From contig JAEZZZ010000032.1 in NCBI GenBank assembly GCA_023418255.1, positions 1 to 60,810 on the forward strand: 60,810 nt of DNA, written 5' to 3'. The stretch's first letter is position 1. Each line of letters begins with the position of its first letter. This DNA is from Bacteroidota bacterium (GTDB lineage Bacteria; Bacteroidota; Bacteroidia; Bacteroidales; Dysgonomonadaceae). Of this stretch, positions 1,146 through 51,133 are shown piece after piece. A program made the translations under genes and the position numbers. A model generated the notes under the pieces. The model did no database searches and had not been told where the DNA came from. It saw nothing but the letters and a program-made list of their open reading frames with translations.

Positions 1146-1254
1146 GCGAGCCTAAAACAGAGAACAAAAAGGGTACTTAACTGTATCGTCACTACTAGCC
1201 GTTTATGAGCTTACAAAACAAACGTCAAGCACTCTTTTCTGTTCTCTTCCATAC

Positions 1255-2601: not shown

Positions 2602-2718
2602 CTCCTTTCCACTTCGATTGAAAAAGAGATGTTTTATCCCTTATCAATCCAAGGTTTTAAATTGTTTTACAATATTCGTAAGAGTCTTCGTCCATCGTTG
2701 AATCTTTTTTTCAATTTG

Positions 2719-2726
2719 CAAAGATA
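2719..2726 (-). promoter_or_regulatory. candidate -7 box for mgtE
   Basis: Plus-strand CAAAGATA is TATCTTTG on the minus strand, just after the rsmD stop and ~118 nt upstream of the mgtE ATG. Confidence 0.3.
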
Positions 2727-2728
2727 CA

Positions 2729-4074: not shown

Positions 4075-4104
4075 GCGTCTTTCTCCATCAACAAAGATAT
4101 GTGA

Positions 4105-4809
4105 TTATTCCCAGTTACCGGCATTGTTGTTCACCGTTGTCAATGAGCCCACCATACGACCGGGATAATTATTCACCGGACGATCCTTCGCTTCTTGAAT
4201 CTTTTGTTCGAGCAATTTATGATTAAGATCTCCCAAATAGGTTTCAAAGGGCGTTTTAACCTCAAACACATGCACCTCATAACCCGATGTTGTTTGGATG
4301 TTTCCGATGCCCATTTCAAACCGGGCGCCACCGGAATGAGGAACATAACGCAATGAATCAAGTGAAATATTCTTACGATTGGGGTAAAGCACTTCCACAG
4401 CGGGGGAGAAAATAGAGTCTCTCATAAGCTGAGGAGCATTTTTGGCATCATCCCACAATCCGGCTTGGCGAATTTTACGTTCGTCACCGGTGCGGATAAT
4501 GTTCATCGCTTTCTCTTCGGTCATTCCATCTTCGAGCTGCTTTTCGGTTAAATCACCCGATTTTACGGGGATGGAAATTTTCCCTTCTCTTACAAAAGCG
4601 ATGAGGGTATCGAAACTGGCGGTGTATTTACCGTGCCTGGCACGATAGGCAATCTGAGCCGTTCGAATATCAACAAGGTGCTGAATAACGTCTTTGTCTC
4701 TTTTATCTACTTCTTTTCTAAAATCAATAGGTCCTTGGATACTTTTCCAGCAAAGGAAACCTAAAAGGACGATTGCAATGGCTAAAAGCACTCTAATTAC
4801 AACTTTCAT
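4105..4809 (-). CDS. hypothetical membrane-anchored protein
   Basis: 234-aa ORF with a single N-terminal hydrophobic helix (VIRVLLAIAIVLLGFLCW). It has clean coding appearance and no recognised motif. Confidence 0.6.
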   Translation of the reverse strand: MKVVIRVLLAIAIVLLGFLCWKSIQGPIDFRKEVDKRDKDVIQHLVDIRTAQIAYRARHGKYTASFDTLIAFVREGKISIPVKSGDLTEKQLEDGMTEEKAMNIIRTGDERKIRQAGLWDDAKNAPQLMRDSIFSPAVEVLYPNRKNISLDSLRYVPHSGGARFEMGIGNIQTTSGYEVHVFEVKTPFETYLGDLNHKLLEQKIQEAKDRPVNNYPGRMVGSLTTVNNNAGNWE

Positions 4810-4924
4810 GGACAGTTTTTTTTATTTTTATATTGTTTATTATTTTTGATTTTCGAATTTAGACTACAAATTTAGAAAAAGAATGATAAAAGTACTACTT
4901 TTACAGCAAAAAAAAGCCTAAAAA

Positions 4925-6349
4925 ATGATATTTCGCTTCTTTATTGATAAAATACAGGAAAATTTTGCATTTAATCTGACCGAAGACCAGCATCTGGCAT
5001 TGGGAAAAATTACTGATTTTCTTTTTTCGAAAGACAACGATCGCATTTTTCTTCTCAAAGGATATGCCGGAACAGGAAAATCGTCGCTAATTGGCAGTTT
5101 AGTCAAAACAATGAATCAAATGAATCAAAAAACAGTGTTATTGGCTCCCACCGGACGCGCGGCAAAAGTTTTTTCCGGCTATGCCAACCAAACAGCATTG
5201 ACCATTCATAAAAAAATATATCGCCAAAAACATTTTTCGGAAGAGGGTGCTGTTTTTTCGCTTTCCGACAATTTGCACAAACACACGCTTTTCATTGTGG
5301 ACGAGGCATCCATGATTAGCAACGACACTGATTATGTGGCAATATTCGGTTCGGGACGATTATTGAATGATTTGATTCGTTACGTATATTCCGGTGAAGG
5401 CTGTCGCCTATTGCTTATTGGTGATACTGCACAACTTCCACCGGTGAAGCAGGAATACAGCCCGGCACTGAATGTCGATATTTTAAACTCGTATAGTTTA
5501 AACACGACAGAATTTACATTAACCGAAATTGTACGTCAAGCAGAAGAGTCGGGAATTTTACACAACGCCACATTGTTACGAAACGCCCTGCGTGCAGGCG
5601 ACACCATACAATTGCCAAAATTGAAACTTTCGGGATTCAAAGACATTCTCAGCATCAGCGGAACAGACCTGATTGAGGCAATCGCGGATGCTTATCATAG
5701 AGACGGCATTGAAGAAACAATGGTGATTGCGCGTTCAAACAAACGTGTAAATGCCTACAACAACGGTATTCGCAATCGTGTGCTTTATCGCGACGAAGAG
5801 CTTTCCACCGGCGATTTGTTGATGATTACCAAAAACAATTATTTTTGGACAAATGATTACGACGATCTCGACTATCTTGCCAATGGCGAGTTGGTGGAAG
5901 TGCTTCGTATAAGAAAATACGAAGAGATGTACGGTTTTCGATTTTGTAGTGCATTGTTGAATCACAAAGAGTACGACATTGAATTTGAAGCCATGATTAA
6001 TTTAGATTGTCTGCATACGGAAGTTCCGGGACTGACACGCGAACAAAATGACGCTCTTTTTAATGCCGTGATGGAAGACTACGCCCATATAAGCCGAAAG
6101 CGTGAACGATATAAAAACATACGTAAAAATCCCTACTTTAATGCGCTGCAAGTGAAATATGGATATGCCGTCACGTGCCACAAAGCGCAAGGTGGCGAAT
6201 GGCAAAATGTGTTTTTAGATATCGGATATGTTCATTCCTCTTTTATGGGCGACAACTTTTATCGTTGGCTTTACACATCCATCACAAGAAGTTCAAAAAT
6301 GTTATTTCTTGTAAATTTGCCAAAAGATTTTATCGCTCTTTCCGATTAA
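4925..6349 (+). CDS. RecD-like / AAA-family SF1 DNA helicase
   Basis: Walker A GYAGTGKS, LAPTGRAAK, Walker B LFIVDEASM, and the C-terminal UvrD_C-like motif YAVTCHKAQGGEW. Confidence 0.8.
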   Translation: MIFRFFIDKIQENFAFNLTEDQHLALGKITDFLFSKDNDRIFLLKGYAGTGKSSLIGSLVKTMNQMNQKTVLLAPTGRAAKVFSGYANQTALTIHKKIYRQKHFSEEGAVFSLSDNLHKHTLFIVDEASMISNDTDYVAIFGSGRLLNDLIRYVYSGEGCRLLLIGDTAQLPPVKQEYSPALNVDILNSYSLNTTEFTLTEIVRQAEESGILHNATLLRNALRAGDTIQLPKLKLSGFKDILSISGTDLIEAIADAYHRDGIEETMVIARSNKRVNAYNNGIRNRVLYRDEELSTGDLLMITKNNYFWTNDYDDLDYLANGELVEVLRIRKYEEMYGFRFCSALLNHKEYDIEFEAMINLDCLHTEVPGLTREQNDALFNAVMEDYAHISRKRERYKNIRKNPYFNALQVKYGYAVTCHKAQGGEWQNVFLDIGYVHSSFMGDNFYRWLYTSITRSSKMLFLVNLPKDFIALSD

Positions 6350-6416
6350 TTACTATTTTTGTATGTTTCTTTGTTCTTTAATAGAATGGGTAAACATAAC
6401 TTAGGCAGAAATAAAA

Positions 6417-7160
6417 ATGATAAATTTGGAAAACAGAGAGCAGAAAATAGATCGACTCATTGAGGGATTGCAGTTCATACAACAATCACTGACATCCGCA
6501 AAAAACGACGATACACTTTCATTCTCATTTTTTAGAGAAACGTTTGAGCGAATGCAACATATCATGCATCAGCTGCACGACTTGGAAATATCGCAGGTTG
6601 AAGAAATGAAGCAACAAATGGAAAAGCTGCTGACATTCCTATCGGAACAAAACAAGCAGCAAACGCCACCACAAGGAATAAACCCGGAAGAAAAAAACGG
6701 CGAAGAACCAACGCCTGTTTTAGATAAAAACCAAGAAACAGTTCCTGACGAAATCTCTACACAAGAGGAGCCAAAAAGCGCTTTCGCCTATCCTAAACAT
6801 GTTATTTTGCCTGAGTTTAAAGATCCACGACAAACTCAAAAAGAAGATGAAACACAAAGCGATATCGCGTCATCCATTTCGAAAAAAGAGAAATCATCGG
6901 TTCAATCGTTCAACGATACCATGCAGGCACCGCCATCGCTGGCAGATAAAATGCACGGTTTGAGCCTGAACGATCGTTTTTTGTTCCAGCGCGAATTATT
7001 CAGCAACAATCGCGAAGCGATGAACAGCATGATGCTGCGCCTCGAAGCTTTTGACTCGTACGAAGGAGTGGAATCGTACATAAAAGAAAACACATCATGG
7101 AATATAAATGACGAAACAGTAAAACTTTTTTTGCAAGCATTAAAAAAACGATTCGAATAA
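6417..7160 (+). CDS. hypothetical protein (coiled-coil N-terminus, Q/E/P-rich linker)
   Basis: 247-aa ORF with no recognised catalytic motif. It is a long intact ORF lying between two same-strand genes. Confidence 0.55.
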   Translation: MINLENREQKIDRLIEGLQFIQQSLTSAKNDDTLSFSFFRETFERMQHIMHQLHDLEISQVEEMKQQMEKLLTFLSEQNKQQTPPQGINPEEKNGEEPTPVLDKNQETVPDEISTQEEPKSAFAYPKHVILPEFKDPRQTQKEDETQSDIASSISKKEKSSVQSFNDTMQAPPSLADKMHGLSLNDRFLFQRELFSNNREAMNSMMLRLEAFDSYEGVESYIKENTSWNINDETVKLFLQALKKRFE

Positions 7161-7179
7161 ACTTTTCACACGCTGCACG

Positions 7180-7860
7180 ATGGGAAAACTGTACTTGATT
7201 CCAACACCGATTGGGAATCTGGAAGATATGACGCTAAGGGCTATTCGCATCCTTAAAGAGTGCGATTTGATTCTTGCCGAAGATACGCGTACAAGCAGCA
7301 AACTGTTGAAGCATTTCGAAATTACCACGCACATGCAATCGCATCACGCGTTTAATGAGCATCAAACGGCTGAGCAAATTATCGAACGCCTTCGTGGCGG
7401 TGCCACGATTGCATTAATCACCGATGCCGGCACACCCGCCATTTCCGATCCAGGATTTTTAATTGTTCGCGCGTGCGTAGAAGCACAAATTGAAGTAGAA
7501 TGCCTTCCCGGCGCCACGGCGTTTGTGCCGGCATTGGTGATGTCGGGACTTCCCAACAATCGATTTTGTTTTGAAGGTTTTTTACCTCAAAAAAAAGGAC
7601 GTAAAACAAAACTGGAAGAGCTTGCAAACGAAACACGCACGATGATTTTTTACGAATCACCCTATCGTGTTCATAAAACATTGGTGCAAATGTCCAATTT
7701 TTTTGGAACGGAACGCCTCTGTTCCGTCTCACGCGAAATATCAAAAGTATATGCTGAAACCATTCGAGGGACATTGTCAGAAGTGGCTGCACATTTCGAA
7801 AAAACCGAACCCAAAGGCGAATTTGTGATTGTCGTGGAAGGAAATTCCGAAACAACATAA
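7180..7860 (+). CDS. rsmI: 16S rRNA (cytidine1402-2'-O)-methyltransferase RsmI
   Basis: GKLYLIPTPIGNLEDMTLRA N-terminus, EDTR motif and TDAGTPAISDPG, all typical of RsmI (tetrapyrrole methylase fold). Confidence 0.9.
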   Translation: MGKLYLIPTPIGNLEDMTLRAIRILKECDLILAEDTRTSSKLLKHFEITTHMQSHHAFNEHQTAEQIIERLRGGATIALITDAGTPAISDPGFLIVRACVEAQIEVECLPGATAFVPALVMSGLPNNRFCFEGFLPQKKGRKTKLEELANETRTMIFYESPYRVHKTLVQMSNFFGTERLCSVSREISKVYAETIRGTLSEVAAHFEKTEPKGEFVIVVEGNSETT

Positions 7861-8025
7861 TTCCTTATCAAAATCAAAATAAATTAATAAAAAAAGCGTT
7901 AGTTTAGACTTTGTATTATAGAAATTATCATAACCGATGTTTAATCAGCAATGAATGTTTAAATAAAAACAGAAAACTATTTGCCATTTCAAACGTTAAA
8001 TAATAAACAATAAAAATTGATTTTT

Positions 8026-8880
8026 ATGAAAAAAGTATGGATTTTGTTTCTTGCCATGGGGTTAATCGCTTCATGCAAAAACGTTAAAGAATCAAAGGAA
8101 TATAAAGAGCTGCAAGCTCAACGAGATTCCCTGTTGATGCAATCTTCGGCTGCCGATGCAGAAATTACGGAGATGATGAATGTAATCAATGAAGTGGAAA
8201 CAAATTTCGAGAAGATTCGTCAAGCAGAAAAGTACATTGCGACACAATCGGCACAAAAAAGCGAAATGAGCAAAGACACGAAAGCGCGCGTGAATGATAA
8301 CTTCAAGATGATTACGGAAATTCTTCAAAAAAACAAACAACAACTCGATGCGCTCAATCGCAAATACAAAGAAAGCAACACACAGGTTGCTGTTTTGAAA
8401 AAGACTATTGAACGCCTCAATAAGGAGATGCAGGAAAGTTCAGAACGAATGGTGCAGTTGCAAGAAAAATTGGCTCAAAAAGATGAAGAGATTCAAAGGC
8501 TGTCCGGTGATGTAAAAGCTCTTGTCGTAGAGACCCAAGCTCAATCGGCTACCATTCAGGCACAAGACAAATCGCTGCATACCGCCTATTTTGTGTTTGG
8601 CACCATGCACGAACTGAAACAACACAAAATTCTGTCCAGTGGCTTTCTGAAATCGACAAAAGTGATGACGGAAACATTCAACAAAAGTTATTTCACAAAA
8701 ATAGACATTCGTGAAACACAACAAATACCGTTGTACGACAAGAAAGCAAAAGTGTGGTCAACACATCCCGAAGGCACGTATGAATTTATAAAAGGTTCCG
8801 ATGGAAATCTTGTATTCAACATTACTGACACACAACGATTTTGGAGCCTTACAAAATACCTAATCATTGAAGTTTACTAA
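8026..8880 (+). CDS. hypothetical lipoprotein with long coiled-coil
   Basis: MKKVWILFLAMGLIASC signal peptide with lipobox Cys. The start was moved from TTG 8017 to ATG 8026. The central region is heptad-rich. Confidence 0.65.
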   Translation: MKKVWILFLAMGLIASCKNVKESKEYKELQAQRDSLLMQSSAADAEITEMMNVINEVETNFEKIRQAEKYIATQSAQKSEMSKDTKARVNDNFKMITEILQKNKQQLDALNRKYKESNTQVAVLKKTIERLNKEMQESSERMVQLQEKLAQKDEEIQRLSGDVKALVVETQAQSATIQAQDKSLHTAYFVFGTMHELKQHKILSSGFLKSTKVMTETFNKSYFTKIDIRETQQIPLYDKKAKVWSTHPEGTYEFIKGSDGNLVFNITDTQRFWSLTKYLIIEVY

Positions 8881-8966
8881 CAATCTTCTATAAACATGAC
8901 GTCAACAATCGTGGAGGATTTATTGTGTAATCCTCCACGACTGTTTTTTATTTATACCCACACAAC

Positions 8967-9662
8967 ATGGCATATAAAAACCTATTTATCGATTTAGACG
9001 ATACCCTTTGGAACATTCATCAAAACGGAAAAGAGTGCTTAGCCGAAATATTTATTGATTACGGCTATGATGCTTTTTATCCCACTTTTGAAGATTATTA
9101 CAATGTTTATATGCCCAATAACCAACGCCTTTGGACACAATATCATCAGGGAGAAATAAGAAAAGAGGAGTTGATTGTCGAGCGTTTTTTAATCCCTGTC
9201 CGTAAATTTGGAATTGATGATCCGGTTTACGCGAAAAAACTGAGCGATGACTTTTTAGAACGCACCACCCACAAAACTCGTCTGGAAGAGGGCGCGATAG
9301 AGCTATTGGAATATCTTAAACCCAAATATAAGATGCACATCCTTTCCAACGGATTTAGAGAAGTGCAATACAAAAAAATTGAAAACTCAGGATTGAAACC
9401 CTATTTTGATAAAATCATTCTTTCAGAAGATGCCGGCATCAACAAGCCAAACGCCGAAATATTTACCTACGCGTTGATCAACACCAATTCGCGACGTAAA
9501 GAGACACTGATGATTGGCGATAGCCTCGAAACCGACATCATGGGGGCGCACAATAGCAAATTAGCACAAATTTGGTACAATCCACACCAAAAGCCCTCTA
9601 CCGATGGATTCACGCCCACACATACAGTCAGTTCACTTCGAGATATAAAAGATATTCTGTGA
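8967..9662 (+). CDS. HAD-superfamily hydrolase, YjjG-like nucleotidase
   Basis: DxDxT motif in LFIDLDDTLW, SNG motif (ILSNGF), and the C-terminal GDS..TDI motif. Confidence 0.8.
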   Translation: MAYKNLFIDLDDTLWNIHQNGKECLAEIFIDYGYDAFYPTFEDYYNVYMPNNQRLWTQYHQGEIRKEELIVERFLIPVRKFGIDDPVYAKKLSDDFLERTTHKTRLEEGAIELLEYLKPKYKMHILSNGFREVQYKKIENSGLKPYFDKIILSEDAGINKPNAEIFTYALINTNSRRKETLMIGDSLETDIMGAHNSKLAQIWYNPHQKPSTDGFTPTHTVSSLRDIKDIL

Positions 9663-9695
9663 GCTGAGACGTAAAACCCTGTTTCAAGAATAGAA

Positions 9696-9730
9696 AAAGA
9701 GAATACACGATAACGAGTACTCTCTTTTTT
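9696..9730 (+). terminator. intrinsic terminator after the HAD gene (between convergent genes)
   Basis: AAAGAGAATAC / GTACTCTCTTT forms an 11-bp stem with one mismatch, followed by a T-run. Confidence 0.5.
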
Positions 9731-9766
9731 ATTTTTGAAATTATTGTTTCCTTATTCCATTGAAAA

Positions 9767-15808: not shown

Positions 15809-16410
15809 AGCTCTCTCTCCTTTCTTTGCTCTAAGTGTTCGCGCATAATTTTTTGAGATGATTTTGACAAGTTTTCTTCATCTTCCAAGTAGCGTTTAAT
15901 TTTCAATATCGCATCTTGATAACCGGGGATTTGCACTTTCTCAAATAGATTTACTTTTTGCGTTGTCTTCTTTCGAGCATATTCGAGTCGAGAAAGTTTT
16001 ATTGCCACAAAATCGCGTTTCATTCCCAATTCGGCCAAAGTTTCGAGCGTATGCACGCCATCAAGGAACCATTTGGGTGAATTAAAAACACTAAATGGCT
16101 TGGTCTGAAATTCGACATCTTCAAAGACGGGTATGGATACGCCGGCAATCTTACGCTTCGAAAAATGGATATCTTTCACGCTCACAAGCGACGCGTCAAA
16201 TTCGTTCCACAAGGCAAGCATCTTTTCGTATGAGCGAATTTGATTTTCCAACGCTTCGTCCAACGTGTCCATCTCCTTTTTGGCTCGCTTTACCTCCATC
16301 CGCAGCGCGCTCTCTTTATTCTGCAATGTGGGAAGTGCTCTTTCCCGCATTTTCAGGTTCTTTTCGAGTGCCTGTTTTGAAGTTTTATTGTATTGAAATT
16401 TTATCGCCAT
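15805..16410 (-). CDS. atpD: V-type ATPase subunit D
   Basis: 201-aa helical protein with RALPTLQNKESALRMEV, typical of V/A-type subunit D. Confidence 0.88.
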   Translation of the reverse strand: MAIKFQYNKTSKQALEKNLKMRERALPTLQNKESALRMEVKRAKKEMDTLDEALENQIRSYEKMLALWNEFDASLVSVKDIHFSKRKIAGVSIPVFEDVEFQTKPFSVFNSPKWFLDGVHTLETLAELGMKRDFVAIKLSRLEYARKKTTQKVNLFEKVQIPGYQDAILKIKRYLEDEENLSKSSQKIMREHLEQRKEREL

Positions 16411-41671: not shown

Positions 41672-42166
41672 CAATATCATTTTTTAGATACTACGCCTGA
41701 TATAAATTTTTCTTTTGCACGCATATTAATGGAATACGTAAACTAGGTTTAGGTAACAAATTCTATTATTAATGAGCTGTTAACTAACTACATAAGCATT
41801 TTATGATAAATGCTTCCAGCATCACGGTTATCTATTTTGAGTAGAATTTACCTTCCTTTTAAATAATAAAATAAACCTTATTATATTTTAATGAAAATAG
41901 AATTATTATGTATATATTTGTGGGGGATTAAGAAAGGAGATATATCGGATGAGTACCGAAAGTATGACTAATCAATTAAAGATACTGATTTCAAAAAATA
42001 GTCTGGGGAAATGTAATAAAAAAGCCAAACATTCACAACTCTTTGTTACGTTCTTTCAAGTCCATGTGGTGCGATTATGAGTTTGAATGTTTGGTGCTAC
42101 AAAAGTAATAAAAATAAACCAAATAAAAAAATACGTGTAGTTTAACACAAAAATCTTTCTTAAATA

Positions 42167-42197
42167 TTTGTTACATTAGGTTTTTTATCTATCTTTG
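42167..42197 (+). promoter_or_regulatory. candidate Bacteroidota sigma-A promoter of the cas operon
   Basis: TTTG (42167-42170), 19 bp spacer, then TATCTTTG (42190-42197). This matches the -33 TTTG / -7 TAnnTTTG consensus. The ATG at 42218 follows 20 nt later. Confidence 0.5.
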
Positions 42198-42217
42198 CAA
42201 AAAAATAAGAAAAACCT

Positions 42218-42409
42218 ATGAAGATGTTTAATTTCGACGACGGGCATTATCCAATGGATGAAATAGAGCAACAAAACAATTGGCAAATACGAATTCTTAT
42301 GATGCATAATGAAGGCATGAGTAAACAGGAAATTATAGATAATTGTGTTATAGAAGATATAGATAGTTGGAAAGAACAAGTGGAAATATTTTACAATACA
42401 AAAAGATGA
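42218..42409 (+). CDS. 63-aa hypothetical protein, first ORF of the cas operon (possible small HTH protein)
   Basis: The ATG lies 20 nt downstream of a TATCTTTG -7 box. Its stop overlaps the ATG of the next gene (ATGA at 42406-42409). NEGMSKQEIIDNCVI resembles an HTH recognition segment. Coding status is unproven. Confidence 0.5.
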   Translation: MKMFNFDDGHYPMDEIEQQNNWQIRILMMHNEGMSKQEIIDNCVIEDIDSWKEQVEIFYNTKR

Positions 42410-44352
42410 GCATATTTAAATCATATACCGGAAATGCAATGCTGAACAATGCGTTGATGACCATTGAAGTGTTAGCAGACCTAAATGATGTAACTGAGAT
42501 AAGCATTGATGTAATCAAACGTCTGTTCGTTGATTTAGAGTTGACGAAGATGAACAAACGTTTTAAGAGTTATACCATGCTTTTTACAAGAAATGGACCG
42601 CTACACAACGATAAAAAATTAGGAGAGAAAATATATTCTACTTTAATTGAAAATATTTTGTCTGTAGACAACAACACTGGCGATAAAGTGTGTGAACTCT
42701 CCGGTTTAAAATTCAGCAAATCGTTTGAGGAAATATATTACGATACGCTAAAAGAATTGAAAATTGAAGAAAAAGAAATTAAGAAAAAGGATTTGACTAT
42801 CGGAAGAACTTGGTTTCCATTAATTGGTGGTCTAGGTTCGGACGCGCAGGCACTTCCTCTTGCCAAATATGCAATCCAAATTCACCCGATTTGTATTGTT
42901 GTTATGCAGTTTTTGCCTTTTTCCGGCGTTTTATACAAAGGAGGCATTATGCTGGCAGATTCTTCAAACTTTAAGTTTGCAAAATATTTAGTACAAAAAA
43001 ATGTCTCGGAAGTGAGAAGTAAAATTGAGAGAACAAGTAAATCCGAGCAAATTGAAAATATCAAGGAGAATAACAAAGGAGATTTTATTCGAAAAGCTAT
43101 AGAGTATTTTACAGAAAAAATAGACTTCTATGAAGATACGTTTACCGATTTAAATTTATGGAGTTTCTCAAATTCCGGCACAGGTGCAAGTTGTTTTATA
43201 GACCGAGTACCAAATCAGCTTTTGCTTAAATTGATTGAGATTCAAAAGGAACCTTTACTGGTATCTGAACTGACGTCAATCCTTAGGAATCCCAAAATTG
43301 CAGAAAGTTTTTTGGAATCGCTTGAAGGCAATCAAATGTGGTATGGTTTGTTCCCGTATAAATTTGGAACAGGAGCTAAAGCCGTTGAGTTTGATGGCGT
43401 AAGTATCCATTTTATGGAAAAATATATTGAACAAACAAAACAAAAGGTCAATCTGCCTCTTATTAAACACATTGCAACCCTTATAGATAAATATAAAGAC
43501 AAAAACCTAACTAAAATAGTCGAAAAAAAAGATGGCTATAACGATGATAATTTCACATTTGATATATACAAAGTGTTGGTTATGGCTACCGGAGAGGGAG
43601 ATTTTAATCCTTTGCATTTTATAGAATTGTTACCCAATGAGCTTCCGGTAAGTCCTTATTTCAATAAATATAACAAATTGATACATTTCTATTGTTACAA
43701 AAATGAAAAGCTTGATTACAATCTTGAGTTACCAAAAAATCTTGAGAAAAATAAGGTGTACCAAGCCTTACTCTGGATAAATTCTATTATTCATAGTGAT
43801 GACAGGGTGGAACGGATAAAAAAAGACCTTATCGACCCTCAACAGTTTGGCTATGTAAACTATATCGATTTGCTTTTACGATATTCTAAAAAGCATAAGA
43901 ATATTTTAGAGCAGATAATGGCGGTTTTTTATAACGAAAGTCCCTATTTTGCTCGAAAAGGTTTAAATCAATTGTTACGACTTTACTATTCTTGGGACTT
44001 GCATAGCAAAGATGCCACTCCTCAGCCGATAGAGACAACATTTAGACTACCTGGTTTTATTAAAAATATTGAGCAATTCGCTCAGGATTATCATGCATAT
44101 TATATGGATAAATATGAAGATAAAGAAACCAAGGAACTTCCTATTGCTAAATACGAAAAACAAATTGATGCGATTCAGTTATATCCTACAGATAACCTTT
44201 TGATATGGATTAACGATGTTTTAGGCAAAATGGAGAAATCAGAAGTTGTCAAAAAGAAATGGTCCGAAGATGAGTTTTTATATGATGACGATGGCAATTT
44301 TGCAACACAATGGGTTAAATTTATACTTAAATATCAATTACAAAATCAATAA
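42406..44352 (+). CDS. candidate Cascade large subunit (Cas8b-like by position only)
   Basis: 648 aa, or 661 aa from the alternative ATG 42367. It occupies the slot immediately upstream of cas7-cas5-cas3. I recognise no motif, so the call is purely positional. Confidence 0.55.
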   Translation: MSIFKSYTGNAMLNNALMTIEVLADLNDVTEISIDVIKRLFVDLELTKMNKRFKSYTMLFTRNGPLHNDKKLGEKIYSTLIENILSVDNNTGDKVCELSGLKFSKSFEEIYYDTLKELKIEEKEIKKKDLTIGRTWFPLIGGLGSDAQALPLAKYAIQIHPICIVVMQFLPFSGVLYKGGIMLADSSNFKFAKYLVQKNVSEVRSKIERTSKSEQIENIKENNKGDFIRKAIEYFTEKIDFYEDTFTDLNLWSFSNSGTGASCFIDRVPNQLLLKLIEIQKEPLLVSELTSILRNPKIAESFLESLEGNQMWYGLFPYKFGTGAKAVEFDGVSIHFMEKYIEQTKQKVNLPLIKHIATLIDKYKDKNLTKIVEKKDGYNDDNFTFDIYKVLVMATGEGDFNPLHFIELLPNELPVSPYFNKYNKLIHFYCYKNEKLDYNLELPKNLEKNKVYQALLWINSIIHSDDRVERIKKDLIDPQQFGYVNYIDLLLRYSKKHKNILEQIMAVFYNESPYFARKGLNQLLRLYYSWDLHSKDATPQPIETTFRLPGFIKNIEQFAQDYHAYYMDKYEDKETKELPIAKYEKQIDAIQLYPTDNLLIWINDVLGKMEKSEVVKKKWSEDEFLYDDDGNFATQWVKFILKYQLQNQ

Positions 44353-44355
44353 ATT

Positions 44356-45372
44356 ATGGCAGAATTAAAAAACATTACAGGTGCATTGTTAATTGATGCA
44401 ACAGCGGCATTTTTAAATGGCGCTGGGTTAGGAGCCGGAGAGAACAAAAACAAAGTATTGCCTAAAACTTTTTGGCAAAAAGTAGATAACAAAAGAGTGC
44501 AAGTGCCATACGTTTCGGCACAATCTTGGAGACGTTGGTTGCGAGACACGACAAACGAAGAAAACAAATGGCAACCAAGTGAACTAAAAGCGATAGATAC
44601 GTCCACAAAAGGCTCAACCAACAAAGTGGCTACAGAACTTAATCCTATCATGTATCCCGAAGATGACTTGTTTGGATATATGAAAAGTGGTGGAAGCGGC
44701 GAAGAAAGTGTGCAACGAACGTCCCCCTTTAAAACGTCCATTCTTAAAGGAGTGAAAAATTCTTACGTGCTCTCTACTGACGAAGCTTTTGTGTTCCCTA
44801 AAAATGGCACTCCACTGCCATATACAACCGAGTTTTATTCTACATTTTTGGAAGGTTTCTTCAATTTAGAATATTATCGTTTGGGAGTTTATGAAAACTA
44901 CAGCAGCAAAGTTGAATTGTCTCAACAAATCATAGAAAAACATGCTGATAAACTCACTCAAAGCGATTTGCCGGAAAAAGCAAAGCGTTATGAATTAAAA
45001 AATGCAGAAGAAAATCGCAAAAACAACGCCAAAGGTCTTTTGAAAGGATTGGCATTTCTAAGAGGAGGCGCTAAGCAAGCGGCTTTTGGTGCAGATGTAT
45101 CGCCTAAAATATTAATTCTTGCCGGGATGGAATCTGCGAATCCCGTGTTCAACAATATTTTTGAGTGTGAAAATGGAATGGCTAAAATCAAAATTGATGT
45201 TCTCAAACAAATCGAAGCTGATTACAAAAAAAGATTAGCAACACCCATATATATTGGTATTCGAAAAGGCTTTGTAGTCAATGAAGAAGATTTAAAAGAA
45301 TTAGGTGACGGCTTCGTAGTAGATTCACCTGTTAAAATTGTGGAATCTTTTACTGAAAAGTACCTGAAATAA
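44356..45372 (+). CDS. cas7: Cas7 (Cst2/DevR-like Cascade backbone subunit)
   Basis: 338 aa. The N-terminus ITGALLIDATAAFLNGAG and YVSAQSWRRWLRD resemble Cst2/DevR-type Cas7. It starts 3 nt after the preceding stop. Confidence 0.7.
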   Translation: MAELKNITGALLIDATAAFLNGAGLGAGENKNKVLPKTFWQKVDNKRVQVPYVSAQSWRRWLRDTTNEENKWQPSELKAIDTSTKGSTNKVATELNPIMYPEDDLFGYMKSGGSGEESVQRTSPFKTSILKGVKNSYVLSTDEAFVFPKNGTPLPYTTEFYSTFLEGFFNLEYYRLGVYENYSSKVELSQQIIEKHADKLTQSDLPEKAKRYELKNAEENRKNNAKGLLKGLAFLRGGAKQAAFGADVSPKILILAGMESANPVFNNIFECENGMAKIKIDVLKQIEADYKKRLATPIYIGIRKGFVVNEEDLKELGDGFVVDSPVKIVESFTEKYLK

Positions 45373-45373
45373 G

Positions 45374-46048
45374 ATGAAAAGAGTACTTCAAATAAAATGC
45401 AATGGATGGACCTCCTCTCCTAAAATGCCTTTTATATTATCGGGAAATTCCGTTTGCATGCATACGCCTTCATATTCCTTGATTTTAGGAATTTTAGGCT
45501 GCTGCATGGGACGATATGTAAAAGCAGACGAAGTGGAAATTGGCTTTCACTATCAATATGACGCGGTTTCTAAAGATACTGAGACGCGTCACCGATTACA
45601 AAACAAGCAAAACCAAATAAAGCCTCATGCAAAAGGCACTGATGCCTATGTGAGAGAGTTCCATTCATTGCCTAAACTTACCATTTGGCTCAATCGATTA
45701 GATTGGAAAGAACAGCTGCAAAATCCGATTGGAACCCCTTCGCTTGGCGCTTCACAAGATTTATTAAATATTCAGGAAGTAAAAGAAGTTGAGGTAATTG
45801 AATTAGAAAAAGCAAAAGTTTCCGGAACAATGATTCCTTTTGAAATTGGAGAAAAGGCGGGAGGACAACTTGTCCAGCTGGCAGAGTCCTTTGAGGAAAT
45901 CGGAGATATTGGAGAAGGAAGAAAAGCCGTAAACTCTAAAATATTTATATCCATACCACATGATGGATTTGCTGAGTTACGGACTAAAAATCTTTTTGAG
46001 GTGGTTGACACACAACAGCAATTTTATTTGCACAAATTTGGTCAATAA
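45374..46048 (+). CDS. cas5: Cas5
   Basis: 224 aa. PSYSLILGILGCCMG near the N-terminus and PSLGASQDLL are typical Cas5 signatures. It starts 1 nt after the cas7 stop. Confidence 0.7.
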   Translation: MKRVLQIKCNGWTSSPKMPFILSGNSVCMHTPSYSLILGILGCCMGRYVKADEVEIGFHYQYDAVSKDTETRHRLQNKQNQIKPHAKGTDAYVREFHSLPKLTIWLNRLDWKEQLQNPIGTPSLGASQDLLNIQEVKEVEVIELEKAKVSGTMIPFEIGEKAGGQLVQLAESFEEIGDIGEGRKAVNSKIFISIPHDGFAELRTKNLFEVVDTQQQFYLHKFGQ

Positions 46049-48313
46049 ATGTTCGATTTCTCTTCGATATATGCCAAAAGTGACAATTACACAACCTTGG
46101 AAATGCATACCAACGATGTGTTGATTGCTGCTGAAAACCTAATCGAAAGCTTGCCACTGACAGACAAGGAAAAAGAGTATTATCTACCCAAATTAAAACG
46201 CATGGCGGTGTTACATGATTTGGGTAAAATTCATGCTTTTTTTCAGCAAAACTTGCTGGATAGCAAAAAACTGACAATACGCCATGAGTTAGTTTCTTTT
46301 TGGTTTTGCGAGAATTATCTAAATATGTCAGTCGATGAAATATTTGCTATTGCCACTCACCATAAAGGAATTATTAAAAACGACGATAAAGGCAGACTCG
46401 ACTCTGGAAAACACTTTTCTCCATTTGAAAAACTTTGCAAGATGGAAGAACAGAAGCTACAATCTTCTACACTAAAAGATTGGTTAACAAAGTTTGAAAT
46501 CAAGATTCCATTCAAGGAAAAGCAGAATAATAACTTTAAAATCTCTATAAAATGGAAGAAAATTTTCCACTTTTATAAGCAATCTGAAGAGATAAAAGAT
46601 AAAAACCTTCGGACAGAACTCTCAATGTGCCGTGCTTTATTGATGGCTGCCGACCACATTGGCTCAGCTAAAATGGAAGATAAAATTCCAAAGCCAAAAC
46701 CAATTGCCGTACAGGATTTTCAGCCGACCGACGGGAAACAACATTTCGAATTGAGAGATTTCCAGAAAAAGATGCTCAACGTGATATACAGCTGTATTTT
46801 GCATAGTCCGACAGATTCCGGAAAAACGGAAGCGGCTTTGGCTTGGGTGTACGCAAATCAATCTTCGAATTCGCGTTTATTCTATCTTTTGCCGTACACT
46901 GCAAGCAGCAACGCCATGGTAAATAGACTGAAAACTGTTTTTGGAGATAACAAAGTTACACCTTTGCACTCTAAAACGCTCGACTATTTTTATGATGAAC
47001 TGGATGATGAGGATGAAATTTATAAAAAGCATAGAATAGCAAAATCGAAAAGTAGCTTATCGCGAGAAATCTTCTTCCCGGTTAAAGTGGCAACCATGCA
47101 CCAACTACTAAAAAACACGTTAAAGGGAAAAGGATGGGAATTTGCGTTATTAGAATATAAAAACGCGTTATTCATAATTGATGAATTCCACACATACAAC
47201 GCATTTTATACCGGACTCTTACTTGCTTCCGTAAAACTTCTGATTCGATATTTCAATGCAAAAGTGATGTTTATGTCTGCCACGATTCCGGCTTTTATGC
47301 AAGATTTGATATTGAAACATGTATTTGATAACAGCGAATCCGTTACTTTCAAACCGGATAAAAACAGCATATCCGACAAGCAAATATTAGAAAGAAAAAG
47401 ACACCAACCTATCTGTATCGATTCTAGTTTGAATGATAAGTTTGAGTTAATCGAACATTATTTACCTAACCATAGTGTTCTTATCATTGTCAATAATGTC
47501 AAAACGGCACAAGATATATTTGAGTCAGAATTATTGAATGGGATTGATAATAAATGCTTATTGCACGGCGGATTGCATGCCAAGGACAGAAAGATAATTG
47601 AAGAAAAAATCACTTCCAAAGATAAAACAACGCGTCCACGAGTCCTTGTCGCGACACAAGCGGTAGAGGTAAGTTTGGATATCGATTATGATGTGGCTTT
47701 CATTGAGAATGCGCCAATCGACGCACTTATTCAACGATTCGGAAGGGTAAACAGAGCCGGACAAAAATATATAAAAGCAAAAAAACACTCTTCTGATTCT
47801 CGGTACAATACCGTTCCTGTCTATTTATTTAAAAATATCATAGGAAAGACGCCTTTTTATGACAAGGAAGTGTTGGAATCAACTTGGAATGAGTTTGAAA
47901 AACTAAATGGCAAACAAGTTTCCGAAGATGATTTGATAGAAGTCTGTAATCAAGTGTATAAAAACGGATATTCCAAAGAGCAACAAGAGGATTTCGAACA
48001 TGGATTTCATAACGCGACAATCAATAACTTTGAAACAGATTGGGTGGCAGGAGATTGGAATCGTTGGACCGATGAAATGTTCGATAAAAATCAGAAAGTG
48101 GATATGCTATGTAGTAATTTGATGGATGAATATGACCAGCTTATAGAACAAAAAAATTATATTGAAGCCAATCGATTAATTGTGCAAGTTTATCCACATT
48201 ATTTAGTGAATAATGCGCCTTTTGATAAAGTTCGAAATCTCTGGCTTGGATATGAATATGACTATATTCCAATGATAGGATATAAAAAAAAAGAAGATGA
48301 TTTATTTTTGTAA
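46049..48313 (+). CDS. cas3: Cas3 (fused HD nuclease + SF2 helicase)
   Basis: HD-domain residues (EMHTND, VLHDLGK, RHELVS, ATHHKG) in the first ~110 aa. Helicase motifs follow: I SPTDSGKT, II IIDEFH, III MSATIP, V VATQAVEVSLDID, VI QRFGRVNRAG. Confidence 0.9.
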   Translation: MFDFSSIYAKSDNYTTLEMHTNDVLIAAENLIESLPLTDKEKEYYLPKLKRMAVLHDLGKIHAFFQQNLLDSKKLTIRHELVSFWFCENYLNMSVDEIFAIATHHKGIIKNDDKGRLDSGKHFSPFEKLCKMEEQKLQSSTLKDWLTKFEIKIPFKEKQNNNFKISIKWKKIFHFYKQSEEIKDKNLRTELSMCRALLMAADHIGSAKMEDKIPKPKPIAVQDFQPTDGKQHFELRDFQKKMLNVIYSCILHSPTDSGKTEAALAWVYANQSSNSRLFYLLPYTASSNAMVNRLKTVFGDNKVTPLHSKTLDYFYDELDDEDEIYKKHRIAKSKSSLSREIFFPVKVATMHQLLKNTLKGKGWEFALLEYKNALFIIDEFHTYNAFYTGLLLASVKLLIRYFNAKVMFMSATIPAFMQDLILKHVFDNSESVTFKPDKNSISDKQILERKRHQPICIDSSLNDKFELIEHYLPNHSVLIIVNNVKTAQDIFESELLNGIDNKCLLHGGLHAKDRKIIEEKITSKDKTTRPRVLVATQAVEVSLDIDYDVAFIENAPIDALIQRFGRVNRAGQKYIKAKKHSSDSRYNTVPVYLFKNIIGKTPFYDKEVLESTWNEFEKLNGKQVSEDDLIEVCNQVYKNGYSKEQQEDFEHGFHNATINNFETDWVAGDWNRWTDEMFDKNQKVDMLCSNLMDEYDQLIEQKNYIEANRLIVQVYPHYLVNNAPFDKVRNLWLGYEYDYIPMIGYKKKEDDLFL

Positions 48314-48329
48314 TTAAATTTGAATAACT

Positions 48330-48851
48330 ATGTCTAAAACAGCACTTAAAAAGCATTTACAAGCACTTCCAAAAGAACGAATTATTGAAACACTGTTGGA
48401 TGCATACACGAACAGTCCTCCTGTGAAAGAATATTTTGACTTCTATCTAATTCCTAATGAGACAGAAAAAGCAGAAAAATACAAAACAATTATAAAAAAA
48501 GAATTTGATTTGTATAATCCGGAAAAAGCCGGATTAAAATATTCTGTGGCTAAAAAAGCTATTTCTGAATTTGCGACATTTAAACCTTCTCCGGAAGTAC
48601 TGGCTGATGTCATGCTTACCCTTCCAGAAGCAGCGTGCGAATTCACTTACACCTATGGCGATATGGAAGAATCTTTTTATGATGCAGCCGTCAATAACTT
48701 TCGAAGAGTATTGATTTATATGGAAAAAAACGGTATTTTACAAAAATTTAAACAGCGCTGTGCTAATTGTGTAAAACATGCTTCGCCATGCGGTTATGGT
48801 TTTGCCGATGAAATAGAACAGCTTTTTTATGAATATTATGAATCAAAATAA
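48330..48851 (+). CDS. 173-aa hypothetical protein embedded between cas3 and cas4
   Basis: Intact ORF starting 16 nt after cas3 and ending 22 nt before cas4. It appears helical, acidic and aromatic-rich, with a C-terminal Cys cluster (CANCVKHASPC). It matches no Cas family I recognise. Confidence 0.65.
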   Translation: MSKTALKKHLQALPKERIIETLLDAYTNSPPVKEYFDFYLIPNETEKAEKYKTIIKKEFDLYNPEKAGLKYSVAKKAISEFATFKPSPEVLADVMLTLPEAACEFTYTYGDMEESFYDAAVNNFRRVLIYMEKNGILQKFKQRCANCVKHASPCGYGFADEIEQLFYEYYESK

Positions 48852-48873
48852 TTATTTATAGCGAGATAACCCT

Positions 48874-49407
48874 ATGCAAATCACCGGAACGCATTTCAAC
48901 TATTTTCAAGTGTGTAAACGAAAGTTATGGCTTTTCTCACACGGCATTAACATGGAACACACGTCCGATTTGGTGTATGACGGCAAGTTAATACACGAAA
49001 GCACTTATCCGCAGCGAGCCGAACGCTATGAAGAGGTGCTTGTTTCGGCAGATTATAATGGTATGCGGCTCAACGGAAAGATTGATTTTTTTGACAGCCT
49101 CAAGCAATGTGTGCACGAAATCAAGCGAAGCGACAAAGTGGACGAAGCACACACGCGCCAATTGAAATTTTATTTGTGGCTTTTGGAATTAAACGGTATC
49201 AAAAACACATACGGCATATTGGAATATCCCAAACTTCGGAAAACCGAAGAAATATTTCTATCCGATGCCGATAGAGCCTCGCTGGCGCGAATAGTTGCTG
49301 AAATCAAAGAACTTGTAACTCGAAAAACCTGTCCGCCGACAATTAATGCGCGACTTTGCAAAAGTTGCAGTTATTACGAATTTTGTTATGTGGAGGAAGT
49401 GCAATGA
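48874..49407 (+). CDS. cas4: Cas4 (RecB-like exonuclease with Fe-S cysteines)
   Basis: One N-terminal Cys (YFQVCKRKLW) plus C-terminal CKSCSYYEFC. Nuclease motifs IDFFD...EIKRS and QLKFYLWLL. Confidence 0.9.
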   Translation: MQITGTHFNYFQVCKRKLWLFSHGINMEHTSDLVYDGKLIHESTYPQRAERYEEVLVSADYNGMRLNGKIDFFDSLKQCVHEIKRSDKVDEAHTRQLKFYLWLLELNGIKNTYGILEYPKLRKTEEIFLSDADRASLARIVAEIKELVTRKTCPPTINARLCKSCSYYEFCYVEEVQ

Positions 49408-50423
49408 AGAAAACCTACTATCTTTTCAATCCCGGTACGTTGCAACGACGGGACAATACACTCAAATTTGTGCCTGTCGAAGAGGACGAAGACGGTCAAA
49501 TACAGCACATGGGAAAACCGCGATATCTGCCCGTTGAGGACATAGCCGAACTCTATGCTTTCGGTTCACTTACGGCAAACAGCGCATTGTATAATTTTTT
49601 GGGACAAAAAGGGATTGCCGTGCATTTTTTCGATTATTACGAAAACTATACCGGTTCGTTTATGCCACGCGATGGATTGCTCTCCGGGAAAATGATATTG
49701 GCACAAACGGCACATTTTCAGGACAAGAAAAAACGACTTTTTATCGCACGCCAATTTATTGAAGGAGCCGCCTTTAATATGTTGAAAAATCTGCGCTATT
49801 ACAACACACGCGGTAAAGATTTGGATGGCGTAATCGAAGCTATCGAAGGCTATGCAGCGCAAATCGCTACGGCAACACAAACCGATATGCTAATGGGAAT
49901 TGAGGGCAACATTCGACAAACATATTACGAAGGATTCAACCTGATTATTCACGATTTTGATATGAACGGACGCACCAAACAACCGCCACAAAACGAGGTG
50001 AACGCGCTTATTTCGTTTGGCAATATGATGTGTTACAGCCAATGTTTGCGTGCTATTCACCAAACGCAGCTCAATCCCACAATCAGTTATCTGCACACAC
50101 CCGGCGAACGCCGTTATTCACTTTCGCTGGACGTTTCCGAAATTTTCAAACCGCTTCTTGTGGACAGAATGATTTTTAAATTGTTGAACAAACGTGAAAT
50201 ACAGTCGAAGCATTTTGAAAAAAGGCTCAACAGTTGCCTTTTGAATCCCACCGGGAAAAAGATTTTTGTAAAAGCTTTCGAAGAACGCTTATCGGAAACA
50301 TTCAAACACCGCGCGTTGAAACGAAATGTCAGCTACCGACATCTTATCAAATTGGAATGCTATAAATTAACAAAGCACTTGCTTGATATCGAAGAATATA
50401 AACCGTTCAAAATGTATTGGTGA
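49404..50423 (+). CDS. cas1: Cas1 integrase
   Basis: 339 aa from ATG 49404, which overlaps the cas4 stop (ATGA). YLFNPGTLQRRDNTLKF N-terminus, and catalytic-core segments GIEGNIRQ and YLHTPGERRYSLSLDVSEIFKP. Confidence 0.9.
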   Translation: MKKTYYLFNPGTLQRRDNTLKFVPVEEDEDGQIQHMGKPRYLPVEDIAELYAFGSLTANSALYNFLGQKGIAVHFFDYYENYTGSFMPRDGLLSGKMILAQTAHFQDKKKRLFIARQFIEGAAFNMLKNLRYYNTRGKDLDGVIEAIEGYAAQIATATQTDMLMGIEGNIRQTYYEGFNLIIHDFDMNGRTKQPPQNEVNALISFGNMMCYSQCLRAIHQTQLNPTISYLHTPGERRYSLSLDVSEIFKPLLVDRMIFKLLNKREIQSKHFEKRLNSCLLNPTGKKIFVKAFEERLSETFKHRALKRNVSYRHLIKLECYKLTKHLLDIEEYKPFKMYW

Positions 50424-50689
50424 TGTATGTAATTTTAGTGTACGATATAGGCGAAAAGCGGGTAGGCAAAATGATTAAACTTTGCAGACAATATTTAAAT
50501 TGGATTCAAAATTCAGTTTTTGAAGGAGAAATTTCCGAAGTTAAATTAAAAGAATTAACTTTGAAAGCAAAGAAAATAATGAAAGAAGAGGAAGACGACA
50601 GTCTGATAATTTTTTCAAGTCGCACAGCTTCATTTTTAGATAAACAAATTATTGGAAAAGAGCGAGCTAGTACAGATATTTTTTTATGA
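50423..50689 (+). CDS. cas2: Cas2
   Basis: 88 aa from ATG 50423, overlapping the cas1 TGA by 1 nt. MYVILVYDIGEKRV beta-1 strand with the conserved Asp, and NSVFEGE. Confidence 0.85.
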   Translation: MYVILVYDIGEKRVGKMIKLCRQYLNWIQNSVFEGEISEVKLKELTLKAKKIMKEEEDDSLIIFSSRTASFLDKQIIGKERASTDIFL

Positions 50690-50780
50690 TAAGTTGTCGA
50701 TGAAGGTTATTTTATGAAGCAACGCTAGACGCAAACTTCTCAACGATCTTTGACATATTGAAAATCAACATATAACATAG

Positions 50781-50824
50781 GTTGTCGATCTGCGGGGATT
50801 TTCTTATCTTTGCATATCGACAAC
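50781..50824 (+). promoter_or_regulatory. candidate pre-crRNA promoter enclosed by a 9-bp inverted repeat
   Basis: TATCTTTG -7 box at 50805-50812. It is flanked by GTTGTCGAT (50781-50789, whose TTG sits at the -33 position) and its reverse complement ATCGACAAC (50816-50824). Confidence 0.4.
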
Positions 50825-50863
50825 TTTTGTCCCTATTTTTGGTGAATTCATAAATTACTATTG

Positions 50864-50886
50864 GCTGATAATCAGCCATTTTTTCG
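50864..50886 (+). other. terminator-like hairpin plus T-run 15 nt upstream of the first repeat
   Basis: The palindrome TGGCTGATAATCAGCCA (50864-50880) is followed by TTTTTT (50881-50886). Confidence 0.4.
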
Positions 50887-50900
50887 CCGTAATCTAACGG

Positions 50901-51133
50901 CTTTTAATTGAACCATAAGGAATTGAAATTTCGCTTTTCGGTGCGGTCGGTTCCGGAATACTTCTGTCTTTTAATTGAACCATAAGGAATTGAAATCGAA
51001 AAAATGCCCCAAAAACTCCCCCAATTTCACCCCAAACTTTTAATTGAACCATAAGGAATTGAAACGCGGCAAAGAAATAAGATAGTTGAAGTAACTACAG
51101 ATGACTTTTAATTGCACTATTTGTAGAATTTTT
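50901..51133 (+). CRISPR. CRISPR array: 3 intact 29-nt repeats, 1 degenerate terminal repeat, 3 spacers
   Basis: The repeat CTTTTAATTGAACCATAAGGAATTGAAAT occurs at 50901-50929 and 50968-50996. A third copy at 51037-51065 has C as its last base. The degenerate copy at 51105-51133 matches in its first 10 nt and at 17/29 overall. Spacers are 38, 40 and 39 nt (50930-50967, 50997-51036, 51066-51104). Confidence 0.92.

Follow-up and report, generated by a model that had tools for sequence, protein, structure and literature searches.

A cas6-less subtype I-B CRISPR-Cas locus from a Dysgonomonadaceae bacterium: two accessory genes and a probable recent loss of cas6

In the Makarova classification, subtype I-B of the CRISPR-Cas systems (short palindromic repeats that are clustered and regularly interspaced, and their associated proteins) has cas8b as its signature gene and cas6 as a usual component. 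How, then, should a locus be read that is built like subtype I-B and encodes no Cas6? The question is raised by an island in a genome of the family Dysgonomonadaceae (Bacteroidota; assembly GCA_023418255.1). The island lies at positions 42218 to 51133 of the window, by which the whole 60,810-nucleotide stretch analyzed is meant (contig JAEZZZ010000032.1, positions 1 to 60,810). An initial annotation, made from the letters alone, suggested that the island might be an undescribed I-B derivative whose large subunit could not be tied to any Cas8 family. Profile searches and comparison with related loci make another answer probable, namely that this is an ordinary I-B locus which has recently lost cas6 by deletion and which carries two accessory genes, neither of them a replacement for Cas6.

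Subtype and the absence of cas6

The locus contains nine + strand open reading frames (ORFs), packed with gaps of 0-22 nucleotides (nt) or with overlapping start and stop codons, which run into a CRISPR array. This layout, including the integration of two extra ORFs of 63 and 173 amino acids (aa), had been described in the initial annotation and was borne out when the coordinates were re-read. The features are as follows.

41672..42217, + strand: intergenic region, the site of cas6 in relatives, with a hairpin and a promoter motif inside
42218..42409, + strand: orf63 (63 aa), its stop overlapping the cas8b start (ATGA)
42406..44352, + strand: cas8b, large subunit (648 aa from the ATG at 42406)
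44356..45372, + strand: cas7 (Cst2/DevR type, I-B)
45374..46048, + strand: cas5 (Cas5b)
46049..48313, + strand: cas3 (HD nuclease fused to helicase)
48330..48851, + strand: DUF6155 accessory gene (173 aa), separating the effector module from the adaptation module
48874..49407, + strand: cas4
49404..50423, + strand: cas1 (I-B type)
50423..50689, + strand: cas2
50690..50900, + strand: CRISPR leader (211 bp), with a promoter motif and a terminator-like hairpin; same sequence in the sister strain L001
50901..51133, + strand: CRISPR array: three repeats of 29 nt and a degenerate terminal one, with 38-40-nt spacers

The 648-aa large subunit has zero matches in Pfam and NCBIfam. The view that it fits no Cas8 family is contradicted by an end-to-end match to the PADLOC Cas8b profile PDLC01109 (E = 6.5e-173, covering positions 1-617 of the 626 in the profile), in which residues 14-659 of the 661-aa reading frame are aligned, i.e. 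all 648 residues from the ATG at 42406. At least 384 homologs of this Cas8b were found in Bacteroidota (Chitinophagales, Sphingobacteriales, Cytophagales, and Bacteroidales), all of them labelled 'hypothetical', and in related loci the gene invariably lies between cas6 and cas7. The identities first given to Cas7, Cas5, the HD-helicase Cas3, Cas4, Cas1, and Cas2 were all upheld by profile searches. Cas7b was matched by TIGR02585 (1.6e-44, 152 bits against a cut-off of 72.75) and PF01905; Cas3 by TIGR01587 (8.5e-65), by TIGR01596 for its HD domain (1.7e-18), and by the PADLOC Cas3b profile PDLC01761 (3e-200); Cas4 by TIGR00372 (2.5e-26) and PF01930 (1.9e-50); Cas1b by TIGR03641 (cas1_HMARI, 462 bits against a cut-off of 304.1); and Cas2 by TIGR01573 (6e-12) and PF09827 (4.1e-22). 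Cas5 stays under the NCBIfam cut-off, yet it is matched over its full length by the PADLOC Cas5b profile PDLC01197 (7e-77).

The locus therefore has the Cas8b, the order of Cas7, Cas5, and HD-helicase Cas3, the cas4-cas1-cas2 module with an I-B-type Cas1, and the repeat end of subtype I-B; what it lacks is a cas6 of its own. None of the features of subtype I-C (Cas8c, a catalytic Cas5d, and the order cas3-cas5-cas8c-cas7) was found, as Cas8b is the only match of the large subunit, Cas5 is matched best by Cas5b models, and the gene order is that of I-B. Judged from its genes, the locus is an incomplete member of subtype I-B, neither an I-C system nor a new I-B derivative. The initial annotation had named two outcomes that would point to an ordinary I-B system: a confident Cas8b match together with a cas6 of the same repeat type elsewhere in the genome, or an extra ORF with a Cas6 fold. 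The Cas8b match was obtained and a Cas6 fold was not, the analysis covering one metagenome-derived contig.

That neither the operon nor the 546-bp gap upstream contains a cas6 had been noted at the outset, and this was upheld and extended to the whole 60.8-kb window. No cas6 was found there by tblastn with the Cas6 of a relative (Pseudobacter ginsenosidimutans) or by a six-frame search with a hidden Markov model (HMM) built from 43 Cas6 sequences, whose best hit (E = 0.006 at 9470-9751, - strand) lies far from the locus. Among 39 non-cas ORFs of the window, PADLOC found no Cas family. No remnant of cas6 was seen in 41672-42217, either by three-frame translation, which gave no Cas6 C-terminal motif, or with the Cas6 HMM.

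The comparison set comprised 40 loci of species-representative genomes (L005-L044), which were found with the Cas8b alignment and onto which the window Cas proteins and the P. ginsenosidimutans Cas6 were mapped by tblastn. In all 39 loci having upstream DNA, cas6 lies upstream of cas8b on the same strand, mostly adjoining it and at times 1-4 kb off with genes between. The gene order in these loci is the canonical cas6-cas8b-cas7-cas5-cas3-cas4-cas1-cas2; the I-B order proposed for the window was thus upheld from cas8b onwards, and the proposal of an undescribed derivative was not, because every related locus with upstream DNA carries cas6 in this order and the large subunit belongs to a curated Cas8b family. 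The Cas6 of P. ginsenosidimutans (CP042431, locus L003) contains the Pfam domains Cas6_I-A and Cas_Cas6_C.

Other loci tell the same. In L045, the closest diverged relative (Cas8b 60% identical), the contig starts in a frame ending '..NSALGMGMCLVK', and in L133 it starts in a frame ending '..LGMGYCEVK'. Both endings, encoded in the first 30-45 nt of the contigs, correspond to the glycine-rich C-terminal motif of Cas6 as known from relatives, e.g. '..NSQGMGCVEV..'. The order in both loci is the cas6 3' end, about 200 bp, an orf63 homolog, and cas8b. A partial Cas6 is also found upstream in L046 (Cas8b 51% identical).

In the window, the orf63 side of this arrangement is joined to a gene for a PDZ protein. 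The junction of PDZ gene, 546 bp, and orf63 is found again in contigs assigned to five or more metagenome samples (ERZ24910768, ERZ27268777, SRR13400973, ERZ28597505, and ERZ28598286), in all of which the gene layout was read and whose flanks are continuous where the contigs are long enough. Across the junction, the DNA of L001 and L002 has 99.93% identity with that of the window. When 41672-42217 was aligned with the L045 DNA downstream of cas6, the alignment was convincing only from the hairpin onwards. A local, population-specific deletion at the 5' edge of the island is the best explanation that these comparisons offer for the loss of cas6. Such a deletion would have left an internal promoter, orf63, the effector genes, DUF6155, the adaptation genes, and a short array.

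The promoter motif placed at 42190 in the initial annotation is present 5' of orf63, as TTTG at 42167-42170 and TATCTTTG at 42190-42197, and a second copy of TATCTTTG lies in the leader (50805-50812). Both were read by a Bacteroidota-type consensus known from Bacteroides promoters. A sigma-70 promoter scan gave sites no more numerous than in shuffled sequence, the sigma-70 model not being applicable to Bacteroidota, and an Rfam scan of the whole window gave zero families at gathering score. The island is horizontally acquired, with a guanine-cytosine content of 0.32-0.38 against 0.40-0.45 in the flanks. The flanking genes are housekeeping ones, which on the left code for GAPDH and for a PDZ/DUF4136 protein and on the right for GH125 and GH92 proteins. 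Outside 42-51 kb, the PADLOC candidate-defence models PDC-M16A (1.6e-117), PDC-S05 (3e-65), and PDC-S68 each match a single non-cas ORF, and PADLOC also gave a RecD-like helicase match to a single non-cas ORF.

Spacer turnover and the maturation of CRISPR RNA

If cas6 was lost, has the locus remained in use? The array holds three 29-nt repeats, CTTTTAATTGAACCATAAGGAATTGAAA(T/C), at 50901, 50968, and 51037, and a degenerate fourth at about 51105-51133. Their 3' end is the 8-nt ATTGAAA(T/C) of I-B type, which the initial annotation had read as the 5'-handle and which is present in related I-B loci too. By eye, the repeat can be aligned with those of 30 related I-B loci, and it belongs to the same family as those of the cas6-bearing relatives.

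Evidence on spacer acquisition comes from the sister strain L001, from another sample, which over 15.9 kb has 99.93% identity with the window and whose Cas proteins are identical. Its array contains five spacers, of which the trailer one (GCGGCAAAGAAATAAG...) alone is common to the window; the leader-side spacers, four in L001 and two in the window, all differ between the strains. The last base of the repeat (50929, 50996, and 51065) is T in the two leader-side repeats of the window and C in the third, and all L001 repeats end in C. The T-ending repeats are consistent with a mutated first repeat having been copied during new acquisitions. Because only the trailer spacer is shared and the leader-side repeats differ in their last base, the simplest reading is that polarized acquisition took place in both lineages after they split, and hence after the cas6 deletion that they share. 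Leader-polarized turnover of spacers has thus continued, and adaptation is active.

Two further observations were made on these strains. At 50862-50878, downstream of the leader promoter motif (50805-50812) and upstream of the first repeat (50901), there is a terminator-like hairpin (TGGCTGATAATCAGCCA, with a run of T after it) that is identical in L001. L001 also contains about 250 extra bp (15912-16161) between cas3 and DUF6155, at window position 48316/48317, flanked by a TAATTA direct repeat. This segment may be an element inserted in L001 or may have been precisely excised in the window; it has zero Pfam matches, and its transposase-like look is an impression only.

For interference, pre-crRNA (crRNA, CRISPR RNA) transcription would start at the leader promoter, and a cut would be needed 8 nt upstream of each spacer, which would yield the handle AUUGAAA(U/C). 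Because no Cas6 is encoded at the locus, this cut is proposed to be made in trans, an option already raised in the initial annotation, most likely by the Cas6 of a further CRISPR-Cas locus that has this repeat family and lies in the same genome; the chance of this being the actual route is put at about even. The donor would be an I-B or type III locus with cas6 and a repeat of the form CTTTTAAT..GGAATTGAAA(T/C). Cas8b, Cas7, and Cas5 would then assemble on the crRNA and recruit Cas3. Sharing of one Cas6 between co-resident CRISPR systems is documented (review PMC11127173), and type I-B often co-occurs with type III loci (PMC7145637).

Several points weigh against the picture of an ordinary I-B locus served from elsewhere. 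The Cas8b label leans on a curated profile of the same family and on genomic position, and a profile of the window's Cas8b family matches none of the solved Cas8 structures in sequence. No Cas6 acting in trans was observed in what was covered here, one metagenome-derived contig. With 3 and 5 spacers the arrays are very short, most relatives having 20-60 repeats, and this would suit a system that is weakened or dying no less than one that is young. Cas1-Cas2-Cas4 suffice for naive spacer acquisition, so the turnover of spacers is no proof of crRNAs. Finally, no protospacers were found in IMG/VR for the three window spacers, and neither these nor the repeat had an exact match there.

The short arrays and the missing protospacers would agree with a second explanation, in which the locus is a recently disabled remnant: crRNA would no longer mature, interference would be dead, and the cas genes would be intact only because the deletion is young, with Cas1-Cas2-Cas4 going on to insert and lose spacers. 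The cas6-less state is indeed confined to one near-clonal population (99.9% identity), and L045, the closest diverged relative, still has cas6. However, the nine ORFs are all undamaged in each of the copies that were read, both strains took up new spacers after their split, and it is common to find co-resident I-B and type III loci from which a Cas6 could be borrowed (PMC7145637; PMC11127173). A disabled locus is accordingly possible but on balance unlikely, and so is the continued insertion and loss of spacers in a locus that can no longer interfere.

A third explanation dispenses with Cas6 altogether and has the pre-crRNA cut by Cas5, as by Cas5d in type I-C, or by a host RNase. RNase E, for instance, processes crRNA in the III-Bv system of Synechocystis. 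The repeat of a cas6-less Bacteroidota Cas5p-Csp2 locus (L052), CTAATAATTGCACCACACTGGAATTGAAAT, belongs to the window's repeat family, and the Cas5 proteins of the window and of L045 share clade-specific changes at otherwise conserved positions, e.g. R126A and D78K. These substitutions drop a conserved Arg and bring no His, Tyr, or Lys; as they also occur in the cas6-bearing L045, they are unlinked to the loss of cas6, and Cas5 was rejected as a catalytic substitute for this reason. The window protein is otherwise an ordinary Cas5b, with its PDLC01197 match, and is 47-59% identical and equal in length to the Cas5 of cas6-bearing relatives. Processing without any Cas6 is thus improbable, and the lending of a Cas6 by another locus is still the preferred route.

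The accessory genes orf63 and DUF6155

Could one of the two extra genes stand in for cas6? Both are tightly built into the operon, neither protein has a known function, and orf63 lies immediately upstream of cas8b. That either of them takes the place of Cas6 in an undescribed I-B derivative is, however, very improbable, as the following evidence on the two families indicates.

The orf63 protein is acidic (isoelectric point 4.5, charge about -7), and its AlphaFold (AF2) model has three helices, with a predicted local distance difference test score (pLDDT) of 79. It has zero significant matches in PDB (Foldseek), Pfam, NCBIfam, PADLOC, and PHROGs. A homolog of 64 aa, 55% identical, is found at the same position in L045 (248-442), and the comparison of the two genes gives a pN (nonsynonymous) of 0.25 and a pS (synonymous) of 0.80. 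An exhaustive phmmer search of 1.8 billion representatives gave two matches beyond L045, namely a partial match inside a 2561-aa protein and the L133 protein (210-428; 72 aa, 35% identity), which lies directly upstream of the cas8b-cas7-cas5-cas3 genes of a different, Hmari-like I-B family. orf63 is a real conserved gene and not a Cas6. The overlap of its stop with the cas8b start (ATGA) suggests that the two genes are co-translated. In all three contexts read, this family of 63-72 aa stands between cas6 and cas8b (cas6 having been lost in the window), and it does so with two I-B effector families.

orf63 was at first favored as a replacement for cas6, since all three homologs (3/3) head a cas8b operon without an adjacent cas6 call. 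The idea was dropped when the contig starts of L045 and L133 were seen to encode the Cas6 C-terminal motif, which places their orf63 homologs downstream of a cas6 3' end. A protein of three helices with no RNA recognition motif (RRM)/ferredoxin beta-alpha-beta fold and no Cas6 profile match was also rejected as a Cas6 in its own right.

The 173-aa protein belongs to DUF6155 (PF19652): it scores 82.5 bits, the Pfam gathering threshold being 27, and covers positions 1-151 of the 170 in the profile. It has 252 homologs at 55-69% identity and zero matches in PHROGs, NCBIfam, and PADLOC. Cys103, Cys147, and Cys154 are invariant, as is the motif CGYGF inside a well-conserved ASPCGYGFAD. Its AlphaFold model consists of nine helices and zero strands (pLDDT 91.8), and the fold has no significant Foldseek match in PDB or BFVD. 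The possibility raised initially, that the 63-aa or 173-aa protein might have a Cas6 fold, fell with these models, both all-helical and neither with an RRM/ferredoxin fold. DUF6155 was rejected as a Cas6 on this ground, for want of a Cas6 profile match, and because it co-occurs with cas6 elsewhere (L017, L047, L066, L076, L113, and L118). It is found in several kinds of CRISPR locus.

L017, 16051-16569: cas3-cas4 slot of a locus of the window's Cas8b family, cas6 present
L047 (Bacteroides heparinolyticus), 6001-6555: cas6-cas5-cas3-cas8b-cas7-DUF6155-Fic-RhuM-cas4-IVP-cas1-cas2
L050 (Paludibacter), 6001-6519: cas9-DUF6155-cas1-cas2
L052 (Proteiniphilum), 6001-6555: Cas5p-Csp2-Cas7-Cas3-DUF6155-cas4-cas1-cas2

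A metagenome survey of 80 DUF6155 loci (L053-L132) extended this picture. Where at least 2.5 kb of downstream DNA was available, cas4, cas1, or cas2 was present within 5 kb in 27 of 43 loci. Where both flanks were available, 21 of 31 loci were cas loci (nine with cas9, nine of type I, and three in which adaptation genes only were detected), while the rest adjoin unannotated genes, a UPF0158 protein, or a ParA-like ATPase. The slot lies between the effector genes (cas3 or cas9) and cas4 or cas1 in I-B, I-C-like (Cas5p/Csp2), and II-C loci. The link of DUF6155 to CRISPR is thus strong without being exclusive: the family is found in Cas9 loci as well as away from CRISPR, and it is independent of the presence of cas6. 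No mention of it was found among the searchable papers.

Upstream of orf63, a hairpin is predicted at 42024-42095 (-23 kcal/mol, z = -3.0). Long inverted repeats lie at the same place in L045 (about 79-157) and L133 (about 37-109); their stem sequences differ among the loci, and they stand some 100-190 nt upstream of orf63, enclose 35-45 nt, and are followed by (C/T)TACAAA. The folding z-scores at the three loci range from -2.4 to -3.5. A consensus fold from a MAFFT alignment of the three sequences had no pairs, though each sequence alone folds into a comparable hairpin. In Bacteroidetes I-B loci, a palindromic candidate RNA, CRISPRCas_133, overlaps the cas6 stop (PMC9067536), and the hairpin upstream of orf63 may be related to it. 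Such a palindrome could also explain why the L045 and L133 contigs break at the cas6 3' end.

Those breaks, exactly at the cas6 3' end, and the metagenomic source of the assembly are what would speak for an artefact, i.e. a chimeric or collapsed contig hiding cas6 at the left edge of the island, but this can practically be dismissed because the same junction recurs in contigs attributed to five samples, with continuous flanks where these are long enough.

A more far-reaching reading combines two claims, of which at least one would have to hold: that DUF6155 is a new accessory of CRISPR adaptation, and that the I-B effector is functional without any Cas6. The first would fit a family recruited independently by I-B, I-C-like, and II-C systems, always just upstream of cas4 or cas1, with a fold that has no relative and a three-Cys site; the second, if true, would mean Cas6-independent maturation of I-B crRNA. 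That at least one of them is true in a functional sense is doubtful.

Significance and comparison with known systems

The CRISPR locus itself is ordinary, a member of a known Bacteroidota I-B family with what appears to be a recent, population-specific loss of cas6. It offers a natural test case. Should the genome contain another cas6, the locus would add a type I example of Cas6 sharing; should it contain none, it would show for how long an I-B locus still competent for adaptation can persist when crRNA is no longer processed. A locus that acquires spacers yet cannot interfere for lack of a Cas6 in trans is conceivable, though it is the less expected outcome. DUF6155 is the more general lead, as a conserved family with a confident, unmatched predicted fold and an effector/adaptation slot in three CRISPR types.

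Among known systems, the locus can be set beside the Bacteroidota I-B loci of the PDLC01109 family, i.e. L003 and loci from Sphingobacterium, Spirosoma, Bacteroides, and Phocaeicola (L005-L044). It shares with them the order cas8b-cas7-cas5-cas3-cas4-cas1-cas2-array and Cas proteins that are 35-77% identical, as well as the repeat, CTTTTAATCG(C/T)ACC..GGAATTGAAA(T/C) there and CTTTTAATTGAACCATAAGGAATTGAAAT in the window, and the presence of accessory genes, which often lie between cas genes. Unlike the window, all 39 relatives having upstream DNA retain cas6. An orf63 directly upstream of cas8b is found elsewhere only in L045 and L133, and the array of the window population has 3-5 spacers against tens. 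The DUF6155 gene between cas3 and cas4 sets the window apart from the family at large, but has its counterpart in L017 and in some of the metagenome loci.

Type I-C (Dvulg) and the Porphyromonas-type Cas5p/Csp2 systems, in which Cas5 cuts the pre-crRNA, likewise lack cas6 and have repeats ending in ATTGAAA(T/C); the Cas5p/Csp2 locus L052 even shares the repeat family and has a DUF6155 gene. This locus (484-8730, array at 8943) is a cas6-less Cas5p-Csp2-Cas7-Cas3 system with a repeat of a Cas6-dependent I-B family. Unlike these systems, the window has Cas8b, a Cst2/DevR-type Cas7, and Cas5b in another order, instead of Cas8c/Csp2 and Cas5d/Cas5p, and its Cas5 sequence gives no sign of gained catalytic residues.

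Systems that borrow a Cas6, such as III-B of Sulfolobus islandicus and III-B and I-G of Pyrococcus furiosus, which use the I-A Cas6 (PMC11127173), resemble the window in having an effector and an array without a cas6 of their own, and the window repeat is of a type normally processed by a Cas6. Their sharing was demonstrated experimentally, whereas the window is known from the genes of one contig and a donor locus was not observed.

Insertions between cas genes are also found in the relatives L005-L044. They comprise 23S_rRNA_IVP (6), PDDEXK_3 (3), PRiA4_ORF3 (3), AbiEii (3), AAA_14/DUF4143 (3), and WYL (2), and further RhuM, Fic, and DUF433/UPF0175, all on the same strand and located in the cas6-cas8b, cas3-cas4, cas4-cas1, and cas1-cas2 gaps. 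Several inserted ORFs of 300-330 aa have no Pfam match, e.g. L005 9040-9993. DUF6155 is like such hitchhiker genes of Bacteroidota defence operons (23S_rRNA_IVP, RhuM, Fic, PDDEXK_3, AbiE, and WYL) in that it uses the same slots, on the same strand and tightly packed, and at times it adjoins Fic, RhuM, or IVP genes. Unlike them, it is a family without a described function or fold, and it is found much more consistently in CRISPR loci (21/31 of the metagenome loci having both flanks).

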